32,000 bases of DNA from Candidatus Heimdallarchaeota archaeon (GCA_030149205.1 JASBSB010000006.1:360001-392000); one strand, 5' to 3'; shown: positions 14,846-18,956, counted from the first letter of the stretch. Numbers and translations are program-made. The notes: generated from the letters alone by a model not told the origin.

Positions 14846-14930
14846 GCTTTCGTAGCTCAGCTGGTAGAGCGGTTGACTTGTAAGTTTCAAAGAAATCAAC
14901 AGGTCGTGGGTTCGAGTCCCGCCGGAAGCT
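14846..14930 (+). tRNA. tRNA-Thr(UGU) with a 12-nt intron at position 37/38 (14883-14894)
   Basis: Acceptor GCTTTCG/CGGAAGC with U73; D arm GCTC/GAGC; anticodon stem GTTGA/TCAAC with CT-TGT-A; T arm GTGGG-TTCGAGT-CCCGC. Intron AGTTTCAAAGAA; CCA not encoded. Confidence 0.95.
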
Positions 14931-16135: not shown

Positions 16136-17386
16136 TTAAGACACCACATCCAGCTTCCGTTGCATTTCAATGTAAAGACCCCGTATTGTCTTACCTGAAA
16201 CCATGGAAGTGCCATTCTGATTCCATTCAACTTGGTCGACCTCGCTGTTTTCATAAATAAAGCTTAGCAGACTTGGACTAACTTCTTCAAAAGTAAAATT
16301 AATAATGTCTTTTTGCAGTATTTTCGAGAGAGTGGATTTAAAAGCTGAAATTAGGGATTCAGGATCCTTCATTGTTACACTAATCACTTCTCTTGGAGGT
16401 ATCTTTTCGTCATTTTGAATATTTTGTATCCTTGACTCTATGGTTTCAGGGGAAGTAAGGTCGGATTTGCTAAGAACTATAATGAGACGAGGATCAGCCT
16501 GATTTCTGTTAATAAATTCTTGAATAGTTTTTTTAAGGTAATCAAAGTGTATCTTCCAAGCTTGGTCATCTAGACTAACATCAATCATTACTATTAGAAT
16601 TTTCGAGTTATAAATAGGATCAAGAAGTTGATTAAAGGCATTCAAGACAGTTGTAGGTAGGTCTACCAGACCCACTGTATCAACAAAGTCTACTGGAAAT
16701 CCTAATATTTTAGACCGGGATTGTTTGATAAACATTGTAGTGAATGCTTTTATATCTGTTTCCTGAGTCTCATTTCCAACCAAAATATTAAACAAAGTCG
16801 ACTTCCCTGCAGAATAAAAACCGATGATGGGGATTTTAGGAATACTATCGTCACCAGTTGTTGGTTGAGAACGGTTCTGAAGCTTTTTGCTTATTTGGCT
16901 TGATCGTTTCCTTATATCCGCACTCATTATATCCTTAAGTTGCTCTCCAATACCCCCAGACCTTGCCTGTTTCTCTCGAATGACCCCCTGCCTTAACCCC
17001 CGAGTAATTCGTGGCCTTGAGTATTGAATCTGTGCGAGCTCAATCTGAAGCTGTACCTCTTTTGAACTGGCTTTATTCTCAAATATTTCAAGGACTAGCA
17101 TAATTTTATCAAGAATTTCTTTATCAAATGTTTTCTCCAAAAATGCATACTGATAAGGTGTGACACCCTGATTAAGGAGGACATAATTGTAATTCATATC
17201 CTCCGTTTCTTCCAACACATCTTGAATTTTTGAATGTGATAGGAAGGTCTCAGGATAATATTTTTGAGTGATAACTTTCTTGTGGTAAACAATTTCATAG
17301 CCTCCTGCATGAGCTAGATCAATTATTTCATTTGTTTCCAAAGAAGGATGGCTATAATAAGAAAGGAGAATTGCAGTCTTCTGCAT
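16136..17386 (-). CDS. hflX: HflX-family ribosome-associated GTPase
   Basis: 'LDKIMLVLEIFENKA.SKEVQLQIELAQIQY', RSGGIGEQ, G1 GFYSAGKS, G3 DTVG, G4-like SKSD. Confidence 0.87.
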   Translation of the reverse strand: MQKTAILLSYYSHPSLETNEIIDLAHAGGYEIVYHKKVITQKYYPETFLSHSKIQDVLEETEDMNYNYVLLNQGVTPYQYAFLEKTFDKEILDKIMLVLEIFENKASSKEVQLQIELAQIQYSRPRITRGLRQGVIREKQARSGGIGEQLKDIMSADIRKRSSQISKKLQNRSQPTTGDDSIPKIPIIGFYSAGKSTLFNILVGNETQETDIKAFTTMFIKQSRSKILGFPVDFVDTVGLVDLPTTVLNAFNQLLDPIYNSKILIVMIDVSLDDQAWKIHFDYLKKTIQEFINRNQADPRLIIVLSKSDLTSPETIESRIQNIQNDEKIPPREVISVTMKDPESLISAFKSTLSKILQKDIINFTFEEVSPSLLSFIYENSEVDQVEWNQNGTSMVSGKTIRGLYIEMQRKLDVVS

Positions 17387-17443
17387 TCAAATAATAATTT
17401 TGTGGAGGACTAAAAGAATTGTTGTGTATTGCACCTTAATTCT

Positions 17444-17579
17444 TCAAATCCAGGTTCGGGATGTTGCTGGGTGGAGCACCTGCTCTATGACCGTGATCAA
17501 GTCACAGCGTGACGCCTTTCCCATACGCTCGCGCAGAATAGTACAGGGCTTTCCGAGGCAGGGCTTAACTTTCTGGTAA
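17444..17579 (-). other. Bulge-helix-bulge processing motif formed by the two ends of the permuted 5S gene
   Basis: Leader UUA-CCAG-[AAA]-GUU (17579-17567) pairs with trailer AAC-CUGG-[AUU]-UGA (17456-17444): 3 bp / 3-nt bulge / 4 bp / 3-nt bulge / 3 bp. Confidence 0.85.
17448..17570 (-). rRNA. rrf: 5S rRNA gene, circularly permuted (3' half 17570-17502, linker CUUGA 17501-17497, 5' half 17496-17448)
   Basis: Minus strand: AGUUAAG-CCCUGCCUC-G-GAAAGCCCUGUAC-UAUUCUGC-GCGA-GCGUAUG-GGAAAGGCGUCAC-GCUGUGA-[CUUGA]-UCACGGU-CAUA-GAGCAGGU-GCUC-CACCCAG-CAACAUCCCGAAC-CUGG-AU. All five 5S helices, the 13-nt loop C, the loop E GUA/GAA motif, the helix IV bulged U and the GCGA tetraloop can be built. Confidence 0.92.
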
Positions 17580-17635
17580 GTTATTAAGCACCAATGAACT
17601 CGTAAGTTCGTTATAACATCCCAAGAAAGTTTCTC

Positions 17636-17642
17636 TATTTAA
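17636..17642 (-). promoter_or_regulatory. Candidate TATA box for the 5S precursor
   Basis: TTAAATA on the minus strand, about 26 nt upstream of a GAACU-UACG-AGUUC hairpin (17609-17596) at the start of the predicted leader; position only. Confidence 0.4.
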
Positions 17643-17926: not shown

Positions 17927-18427
17927 ATGGAATGGGACAAGTACCTCTCAAGTGAATATCCTAACAGAGAGAAACCATTCAATAAAGCCGTTTTAGGAGG
18001 AACTTTTGATCGCTTTCATGATGCACATAGACTGCTACTAAAGACTGCTGCCTTGTTAGCAAAATCGTTGTTCGTTGGGGTGGTTGGAGTAGAGTTAGGT
18101 AAGAAAATGTTCCCTAATAAGAAACATGGTGATCGAATTCAGGATTATGAGACCCGAATTAGAAATGTTGAAACATTTCTGTCCAAATTTAATTCTACAT
18201 TTGAGGTGGGTGAATTAAAAGATCCTTGGGGACCAGCACCTTATGATAAGAATGCAGACCTAATTGTCGTTTCAGGGGAAACGTATTCATCTGCTGAGAA
18301 AATCAATCAAATGAGAGAAGAAAGGGGATTAGCACCTCTCACTATTGTAACAATTAACAGGGTTCTTGACGAGAAGGGAATCCCAGTTTCTTCAACTAGA
18401 TTACGAGAGTTAGAGGTCAAAAAATAA
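17927..18427 (+). CDS. coaD: Phosphopantetheine adenylyltransferase, archaeal/eukaryotic type
   Basis: GGTFDRFHDAH, DPWGPA, 'LIVVSGET...INQMREERGLAPL', VSSTRLR. Confidence 0.92.
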   Translation: MEWDKYLSSEYPNREKPFNKAVLGGTFDRFHDAHRLLLKTAALLAKSLFVGVVGVELGKKMFPNKKHGDRIQDYETRIRNVETFLSKFNSTFEVGELKDPWGPAPYDKNADLIVVSGETYSSAEKINQMREERGLAPLTIVTINRVLDEKGIPVSSTRLRELEVKK

Positions 18428-18476
18428 GCTGTATCTTAAGAGTTAGTTTAAATTTTAGATATGATTGACAACCTTA

Positions 18477-18956
18477 ATGGAAATAGGAAATCAATGGCCA
18501 CTGATAGTTTTACATAATGTCAATGCTTCAAGCAAATGTACAGAATTTGTCAGAATTGGGTCAGCATTTGGGTTCAGAACCTTAATAATCACACAGGCGC
18601 AGGGATCAGCTGCTCAGAATGGGATTCCAAGTGCACAAAAATTAGCTCTCAAGAATAAGCTAAATTTTTTGGCCTTATATTCAGTTGAAGATGTAATTGA
18701 GCTTTTTAACCCTGAGCAGGTTGTACTGATTGCGCCCCCTCCCTTTGGGAAAGAAAATCTCTCACAAGGTGTTATTGATGAGATCAAGGCTCAAAAAACA
18801 GTGGTGGTTTTCGGAGGAAATGACCCAGGTTTGTCAAGAAAGGATCTGGATTTAGGAAGAACGGTTCAGTTGTCTGTTGGGGATATTGGTTCGATTGCCA
18901 CTCTATCACTTACCTTAGCCCTTCTAAAACATGGAAATAATCTATTGCCTGAGTAA
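18477..18956 (+). CDS. DUF2122/COG4080 SPOUT (SpoU-like) RNA methyltransferase-family protein
   Basis: 'LHNVNASSK...GSAAQNGIPSAQKLALK...VVFGGNDPGLSRKDL' matches the archaeal family pattern; ATG at 18477 preferred over TTG at 18465. Confidence 0.72.
   Translation: MEIGNQWPLIVLHNVNASSKCTEFVRIGSAFGFRTLIITQAQGSAAQNGIPSAQKLALKNKLNFLALYSVEDVIELFNPEQVVLIAPPPFGKENLSQGVIDEIKAQKTVVVFGGNDPGLSRKDLDLGRTVQLSVGDIGSIATLSLTLALLKHGNNLLPE

Follow-up and report, generated by a model that had tools for sequence, protein, structure and literature searches.

The window analysed here, a 32,000-nt stretch of DNA from Candidatus Heimdallarchaeota archaeon (GCA_030149205.1, JASBSB010000006.1:360001-392000), carries on its minus strand a short RNA gene in which the two halves of a 5S rRNA stand in rotated order between two protein-coding genes (Table 1). 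The 5S elements that the earlier note had read at this place, from the start of the 3' half to the end of the 5' half, are all found on the minus strand at the positions it gave. Of the flanking genes, which it called hflX and coaD, one encodes an HflX-type GTPase and the other, which is divergent from the 5S gene, a cytidylyltransferase-like protein that belongs to CoaD/PPAT at the superfamily level.

The A/T-rich region upstream of the leader contains two TATA-like boxes, of which TTATAA is separated from the first paired base of the leader by about 25 nt. As read from the sequence, this region is a putative promoter, by which the 5S gene would form an independent transcription unit; a sigma-70 promoter scan is inapplicable to archaea. 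The T-run downstream of the trailer is a likely archaeal terminator, and runs of 5-7 T follow the trailer in five of five aligned relatives.

The window contains two further RNA-like features. A tRNA gene at 14846-14930 on the plus strand (RF00005, 59.1 bits) has a 14-nt insertion in the anticodon-loop region, which is presumably a bulge-helix-bulge (BHB) intron. A marginal match to the C/D-box family SNORD36 at 18661-18715 on the plus strand (31.4 bits against a cut-off of 30) lies inside an ORF (18465-18956) with DUF2122 and SpoU-methylase-like domains; the match may be fortuitous or may mark a guide RNA nested within the coding sequence.

Table 1 Features of the permuted 5S rRNA gene and its surroundings, in coordinates of the window
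Feature	Position	Strand	Sequence, content or basis
HflX-type GTPase gene	16136-17386	minus	Flanks the 5S gene
T-run, likely archaeal terminator	17412..17418	minus	TTCTTTT; sequence reading
Permuted 5S rRNA gene, whole unit	17590->17433	minus	Leader, 3' half, 5-nt loop, 5' half, trailer
Outer helix, leader strand	17577..17588	minus	CUUAAU 17588-17583, unpaired AAC 17582-17580, UUA 17579-17577
Outer helix, trailer strand	17435..17446	minus	UGA 17446-17444, unpaired AGA 17443-17441, AUUAAG 17440-17435
Distal outer helix	17588-17583 / 17440-17435		CUUAAU / AUUAAG
Proximal outer helix	17579-17577 / 17446-17444		UUA / UGA
Central 4-bp helix	17576-17573 / 17453-17450	minus	CCAG / CUGG
5' bulge	17570..17572	minus	AAA; predicted EndA cut 17571/17570; predicted RNA start A17570
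3' bulge	17447..17449	minus	AUU; predicted EndA cut 17448/17447; predicted RNA end U17448
Inner helix	17569-17567 / 17456-17454		GUU / AAC
5S 3' half	17502..17570	minus	RF00001 model match; collinear-Asgard profile positions 50-117; helices II, IV, V and I covary. Content: helix III GU, loop B, helix II 3' strand, helix V, loop E, helix IV, GCGA loop D, GCUGUGA
First letters of 3' half with the preceding A	17571-17564	minus	A-AGUUAAG; read from sequence
Helix II 3' strand	17563-17555	minus	CCCUGCCUC; read from sequence
Loop E motif	Inside 3' half	minus	UGUAC...GGGAA
Helix IV with loop D	Inside 3' half	minus	GCGA loop
Helix I 3' strand	17508-17502	minus	GCUGUGA
Loop closing helix I, 5 nt	17497..17501	minus	CUUGA; site of the two ends in ordinary 5S
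5S 5' half	17448..17496	minus	RF00001 model 6-51; helices I, II and III covary. Content: UCACGGU (helix I 5' strand), loop A CAUAG, helix II 5' strand AGCAGG, loop B
Helix III segment of 5' half			CACCCAG, 13-nt loop C, CUGG ending at 17450, then AU 17449-17448
A/T-rich upstream region, putative archaeal promoter	17611..17642	minus	Inference from sequence reading only
TATA-like boxes	17642-17635; 17616-17611	minus	TTAAATAG; TTATAA
Cytidylyltransferase-like gene, CoaD/PPAT superfamily	17927-18427	plus	Pfam PF01467; divergent from the 5S gene

Identity of the gene as a 5S rRNA gene

A search of the whole window with Rfam reports no 5S rRNA. The native gene order scores 12.4 bits against RF00001 with relaxed thresholds, whereas the gathering cut-off of this family is 38 bits, so that the locus lacks a collinear 5S order scoring at least 38 bits. 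Taken separately, however, each half has RF00001 as its best Rfam family, the 3' half (17502-17571) matching model positions 50-120 with 16.3 bits and the 5' half (17448-17493) matching positions 6-51 with 12.3 bits. The two model ranges are complementary. The three-way junction, helices I-V, loops A-E, the GUAC/GAA motif of loop E and loop C are all present, and this element content is far beyond chance.

A profile of collinear order was built from 11 collinear 5S genes of other Asgard families, each of which scores 58-85 bits on RF00001. When the halves are re-joined in conventional order, 49 of 49 permuted sequences give a single full-length match to this profile, whereas in native order they give two half matches each. 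The re-joined window sequence matches positions 5-114 with 36.1 bits (E 1.3e-9) and thus shows full-length homology to accepted 5S rRNAs. On the consensus structure of the collinear genes, the re-joined sequences form 27.4 of 37 pairs, compared with 5.2 of 29 for the native order and 33.7 of 37 for the collinear genes themselves. The minimum-energy fold of the predicted 123-nt RNA has the three-armed topology of 5S rRNA, whether the molecule is treated as linear or as circular.

The permuted structure is maintained by selection. The order of parts is the same in five relatives found by BLAST. In an alignment of six sequences, 92.9% of the cells of the permuted 5S structure are paired and double-sided changes occur at 21 of 40 pairs; none of 500 shuffles reaches that level, and slid controls give 31-42%. 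All helices show compensatory changes, including helix I, which is 7 bp long and covaries. Folding energy alone gives no support, because the z scores of the precursor (0.62) and of the ring (0.70) do not stand out from those of shuffled sequences and because the BHB motif described below is the minimum-energy structure in neither the 191-nt nor the 158-nt precursor.

In genome G070 (C510:3560-4070, minus strand), two complete permuted 5S genes that differ in their helix II sequences stand in tandem. The strands of helix II are complementary inside each permuted unit and mismatched across units, which argues that the permuted unit is the unit under selection. RF00001 reads a collinear 5S across these two permuted genes with 31.2 bits and a 46-nt insert. 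Tandem duplication is the simplest route between a permuted and a collinear gene, in either direction.

The circular permutation proposed in the earlier note is thus borne out by the half matches to RF00001, the full-length profile match of the re-joined sequence, the compensatory changes, the lack of any collinear 5S match in the genome (see below) and the conservation of the layout in more than 100 assemblies. The half matches, the profile match and the covariation of the helices also support two particulars of that proposal: the gene is opened at the helix III bulge, and helix I is closed by the linker. The locus is almost certainly a working, permuted 5S rRNA gene.

Copy number in the genome

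The genome assembly comprises 3.31 Mb in 12 contigs and is 93.5% complete. RF00001 has no match in the whole genome at E<=10. The profile of collinear Asgard genes finds the 3' half of the permuted locus only, and a profile in permuted order finds the permuted locus alone (E 5.7e-24). Neither RF00001 nor the profile searches therefore reveal a collinear 5S gene in this genome, a point that the earlier note had singled out for checking. The 16S gene is assembled on the same contig, about 253 kb from the 5S locus, and so rRNA genes are not generally absent from the assembly.

Occurrence of the permuted gene in Asgard archaea

Model R1, built from six sequences, has full-length matches in 44 of 47 genomes of the order and in 78 of 83 genomes of the class. 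Model R2, rebuilt from 50 matches, scores strongly (41-140 bits) in about 86 genomes of a phylum-wide sample of 151. The search of related Asgard genomes with permuted models, which had been suggested earlier, thus recovers full-length copies at each of these levels. RF00001 scores above its cut-off in 49 of the same 151 genomes, and these belong nearly all to families without a strong R2 match: f11 (26/26), f20 (3/5), f15, f27, f28 and f17, which is a class of its own and is collinear in 17 of 19 genomes. Weak cross-matches of R2 and RF00001 are half matches on the other gene type. Genomes of the Heimdall-, Hod-, Odin-, Baldr-, Njord-, Atabey-, Hel- and Loki-types have the permuted state; a collinear gene is kept by whole families and in at least two other classes.

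No collinear 5S gene was found in the 83 genomes of the class. The sole RF00001 match above the cut-off among them joins a 5' half to an unrelated flank and is not a collinear gene; the weak RF00001 matches in family f4, Odin and Heimdallarchaeum, which consist of a well-matched 5' half and an unrelated flank, are likewise rejected.

An exact pattern of 3' half, loop and 5' half was scanned over one genome per species in 185,579 species. It detected 77 loci, 74 of which are confirmed by R2; the record titles of these 74 name either an Asgard lineage or simply an 'archaeon'. The other three matches, from bacteria, are due to chance, as none of them matches R2. The permuted layout is present in more than 100 independent assemblies, four closed chromosomes among them. 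Carriers include Ca. Heimdallarchaeum aukensis and H. endolithica (closed chromosomes with two permuted copies each), two closed Atabeyarchaeia chromosomes, Baldrarchaeum yapensis, Odinarchaeia, Njordarchaeota, Helarchaeota Hel_GB_A, Heimdall AB_125 and many 'Hodarchaeota' records. The two Heimdallarchaeum genomes are 100% identical to G015 and G020, which fall in the order of the window; the window is therefore assigned to Heimdallarchaeia, and the earlier note was right in taking its source for an Asgard archaeon. According to Wu et al. (2022, PMC8813620), the 5S genes of these closed genomes 'could not be predicted'. The earlier suggestion that linear models overlook the gene is correct, and the permuted layout accounts for the apparent lack of 5S genes across most Asgard lineages, these two genomes included.

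The cytidylyltransferase-like gene lies divergently beside the permuted 5S gene in eight family relatives and in Heimdallarchaeum. This conserved neighbour marks the orthologous locus and indicates that the 5S gene is inherited vertically. The position of HflX beside the 5S gene is not shared by relatives.

Several variants of the locus occur in other genomes. In genome G001, two permuted 5S genes stand in tandem 5 nt apart (L021:1501-1658 and L021:1664-1921), the second being broken by 100 N. The single gene of genome G003 combines the leader of copy 1 with the trailer of copy 2 of G001 and has no good BHB; it may be a collapsed or recombined tandem. Some low-GC Loki-type genera of family f14 (L173:101-285, L174:101-285, L175, L176) have a 31-nt insertion in loop C after CCGAA, which may be a mini-intron. 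In family f4 (G014; L009, L018), the permuted 5S is found at four contig ends of one assembly, which suggests a multi-copy repeat that broke the assembly.

A LAGLIDADG homing-endonuclease ORF (L056:1820-2464, minus strand) lies about 200 nt from the collinear 5S gene in family f17. Proteins nearly identical to its product bear the NCBI labels Hod-, Odin- and Prometh-archaeota, and such conflicting labels indicate that the public taxon names of these metagenome-assembled genomes (MAGs) are unreliable. 'Thorarchaeota QM1B.68' belongs to the same GTDB genus (g11) as Heimdall AB_125.

Bulge-helix-bulge motif at the gene ends

The leader and trailer of the gene form a BHB motif, which is of the strict 3-4-3 type in the window and flanks a gene whose 3' part is upstream of its 5' part and whose native ends are joined by a short linker. 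This motif, which is key to the working of the gene, was absent from the earlier note. Its central helix is replaced by CAAG/CUUG and CGGG/CCCG in relatives, with 100% of the cells paired. The outer helix shows double changes at eight of eight pairs, and the outer helices of relatives are 7-13 bp long and unrelated in sequence. Over 49 genes, the flank duplex has a mean energy of -16.0 kcal/mol, compared with -8.0 kcal/mol for leaders paired with the trailers of other genes. In most relatives the motif is far stronger than in the window. The outer helix of the window itself is weak: it consists of 3 bp, a 3x3 loop and 6 bp, and its duplex energy of -7.8 kcal/mol lies within the range of mismatched partners. 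The strict 3-4-3 form with an inner helix is found in 11 of 49 relatives, the others having relaxed forms; 52 of 91 cases show a relaxed BHB that lacks the inner helix.

The leader segment GCUUAAU has an alternative partner in UUAAGC, with which the 5S RNA begins (17567-17589, minus strand), and the minimum-energy fold uses this pairing. In the folding model, this leader hairpin competes with the BHB.

The enzymes that would act on such a motif are encoded in the genome, which has two PF01974 ORFs for EndA (77.6 and 50.3 bits) and one PF01139 ORF for RtcB (555 bits). The EndA-type genes lie at G000 C4:500599-500844 and C2:623316-623576, and the RtcB gene at C7:189403-190716. In Crenarchaeota, a two-EndA make-up accompanies tolerance of relaxed motifs. 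The archaeal splicing endonuclease cuts between the second and third bulge nucleotides, as in tRNA introns at 37/38. From this geometry, the excised RNA is deduced to run from 17570 to 17448 and to be 123 nt long. The predicted U17448-A17570 junction reads CUGG-AUA-GUUAAG and thus exceeds the GG-AA-GUUAAG of collinear Asgard 5S rRNA by one nucleotide. In most other lineages, the same cut rule yields ...GG-AA-GUUAAG, which is exactly the collinear 5S sequence. The AUA junction therefore implies either that the family of the window has one extra bulge nucleotide or that the cut is offset by one. Conservation does not differ between the bulge nucleotides that would be kept and those that would be discarded, because the bulges are mostly A throughout.

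Proposed maturation into a circular 5S rRNA

We propose that the leader and trailer of the transcript pair as the BHB, whose central 4-bp helix would borrow the 3' strand of helix III. An EndA-type splicing endonuclease would then cut both 3-nt bulges, thereby freeing an RNA of about 123 nt (17570->17448), and RtcB would join U17448 to A17570, thereby restoring the helix III bulge. The product would be a covalently closed 5S RNA with the usual three-armed fold, which would enter the ribosome as a ring. The chain as a whole, from transcription and cleavage at these exact bonds to ligation and a mature ring, seems to us somewhat probable. Extended to the group, the proposal would make a closed ring produced by EndA and RtcB the mature ribosomal 5S rRNA throughout Heimdallarchaeia, Hodarchaeales-type genomes among them, and in most of the other Asgard classes. 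In this wider form it is serious but tentative and falls a little short of probable.

Such a ring has precedents. An engineered, circularly permuted E. coli 5S rRNA (cp5S), in which helix I is closed by a tetraloop, supports an active ribosome (Huang et al. 2020, PMC7283268). In Thermoproteus, the permuted SRP RNA functions as a circle after cleavage at a BHB (PMC4731332). Archaeal 16S and 23S rRNAs are circularised, and 23S rRNA can stay circular in ribosomes (PMC12918454). By analogy, the Thermoproteus SRP RNA and the archaeal 16S and 23S rRNAs favour ligation. Evidence weighing against a ring comes from the weak outer helix in the window, the BHB not being the minimum-energy structure, the small number of strict motifs and the AUA junction.

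Two other fates of the excised RNA can be considered. If the cuts at the BHB only trim the leader and trailer, the permuted 5S RNA would stay unligated, with its ends in the helix III bulge. The cut RNA would still be a single chain with all five helices, and a nick in the bulge need not harm it. Indeed, the mitochondrial 5S rRNA of brown algae is permuted in its final product and unligated (PMC4267664), and 5S rRNA is stated not to be circularised in the archaea studied so far (PMC12918454). Because a nick in the helix III bulge leaves one continuous chain, ligation is not logically required for function, and the sequence fits both a ligated and a nicked bulge. However, the ends left by EndA, a 2',3'-cyclic phosphate and a 5'-OH, are substrates of RtcB, which is present, and helix III holds them side by side. 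To our knowledge, moreover, every well-studied archaeal RNA that is excised from a BHB is circularised, including tRNA and rRNA introns, pre-16S, pre-23S and the Thermoproteus SRP RNA. An unligated mature form is therefore rather unlikely in our assessment. A ring could also be an intermediate that is cut again in the helix I loop, as in permuted tRNAs, to yield a linear, conventional 5S rRNA. The permuted tRNAs of Cyanidioschyzon merolae mature in this way, as cited in PMC4267664, and re-linearisation is the usual view for circular pre-16S and pre-23S (PMC12918454). However, the helix I loop has no conserved sequence or length, and no recognition structure of the RNase P or tRNase Z type is present. 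Other lineages cap helix I with a UUCG, UACG or UGCG tetraloop or carry an additional G-C stem-loop at this place. Such stable caps, which are common, together with the lack of a conserved processing signal, make re-opening to conventional ends very unlikely; the caps point to selection for a permanently closed hairpin.

The remaining alternative is that the locus does not work at all and is an assembly artefact, a rearranged pseudogene or a chance resemblance, the real 5S gene lying in an unassembled part of the genome. The incompleteness of the 12-contig assembly leaves room for such a gene, and rRNA genes are often absent from metagenome bins. However, the order of parts recurs in independent assemblies and closed chromosomes, compensatory changes keep every helix, no collinear 5S gene was found in the 83 genomes of the class and synteny is conserved, so that this alternative is close to refuted. 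We therefore retain a working permuted gene, with the ligated ring as the preferred form of its product.

Implications

5S rRNA is universal, and its archaeal gene has hitherto been regarded as trivially recognisable. For organisms with a permuted 5S gene, standard annotators and the 5S criterion for a 'high-quality MAG' fail systematically. The permuted gene predicts a new molecular species in a cellular ribosome, namely a circular (or nicked, permuted) 5S rRNA. If this is true, 5S rRNA biogenesis depends on the tRNA-splicing machinery in these archaea.

The permuted or collinear state of the 5S gene is a rare, discrete and hard-to-reverse character and thus an independent marker for the contested branching of Asgard lineages. 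It also bears on the archaeal ancestor of eukaryotes. Eukaryotic 5S genes are collinear, which raises the question of whether that ancestor had a permuted gene that later reverted.

A mechanism that combines a permuted gene with a BHB and the splicing machinery has been described for tRNA and for SRP RNA, but in the full-text literature searched it is undescribed for a universal rRNA across most of a phylum. Full-text searching, which covered literature other than subscription journals, found no publication on a permuted or circular archaeal 5S rRNA; its relevant results were the mitochondrial case of brown algae, the engineered E. coli cp5S and papers on 16S and 23S rRNA.

Comparison with known systems

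Circularly permuted tRNA genes are present in Thermofilum pendens. Those of Cyanidioschyzon merolae were described by Soma et al. (2007), as cited in PMC4267664. Like the Asgard 5S gene, permuted tRNA genes place the 3' half upstream of the 5' half and have a BHB formed by leader and trailer; they pass through a circular intermediate made by the splicing machinery, as is proposed for the 5S RNA. In permuted tRNAs, however, RNase P and tRNase Z cut out the linker between the native ends, so that the product is linear, whereas the linker of the Asgard 5S RNA is a tetraloop-like cap with no sign of removal.

The permuted SRP RNA gene of Thermoproteus tenax and T. uzoniensis (Plagens et al. 2015, eLife, PMC4731332) likewise encodes a universal structured RNA in rotated order, whose canonical gene appeared to be 'missing' and whose circle is functional. 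It concerns a different RNA in a single genus, whereas the Asgard 5S layout spans most of a phylum. Circularisation and protein binding of the SRP RNA have been shown experimentally, whereas circularisation of the Asgard 5S RNA is a prediction from its genes.

The earlier note knew of no described permuted 5S rRNA. This does not hold in general, because a case of a different kind of permutation exists in the mitochondria of brown algae (Valach 2014, PMC4267664). The permuted 5S rRNA of brown-algal and other stramenopile mitochondria (mtPerm-5S) likewise has its ends away from the helix I tip and escapes standard models. In mtPerm-5S, however, a 5' or 3' hairpin takes the place of helix I and the ends are situated where the alpha and gamma domains meet; the RNA is organellar and involves neither a BHB nor ligation. 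In contrast, the Asgard gene keeps and caps helix I and is opened in the helix III bulge, within the beta domain.

The engineered E. coli cp5S resembles the Asgard RNA in that the native ends are joined by a tetraloop, new ends are created elsewhere and the ribosomes are active (PMC7283268). It differs in being artificial, opened at loops C or D and inserted in 23S rRNA.

The circles of archaeal pre-16S and pre-23S, the circular mature 23S and the permuted 23S of Pyrococcus (PMC12918454, PMC7758197) arise by the same BHB, EndA and RtcB route that is proposed here, and the circular or permuted 23S rRNA is a precedent for such an rRNA inside archaeal ribosomes. In these cases the genes are collinear and the permutation occurs at the RNA level, whereas in the Asgard archaea the 5S gene itself is permuted. 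Because of this permuted gene order, ligation (or a nicked form) is the sole way to a 5S rRNA in these organisms.
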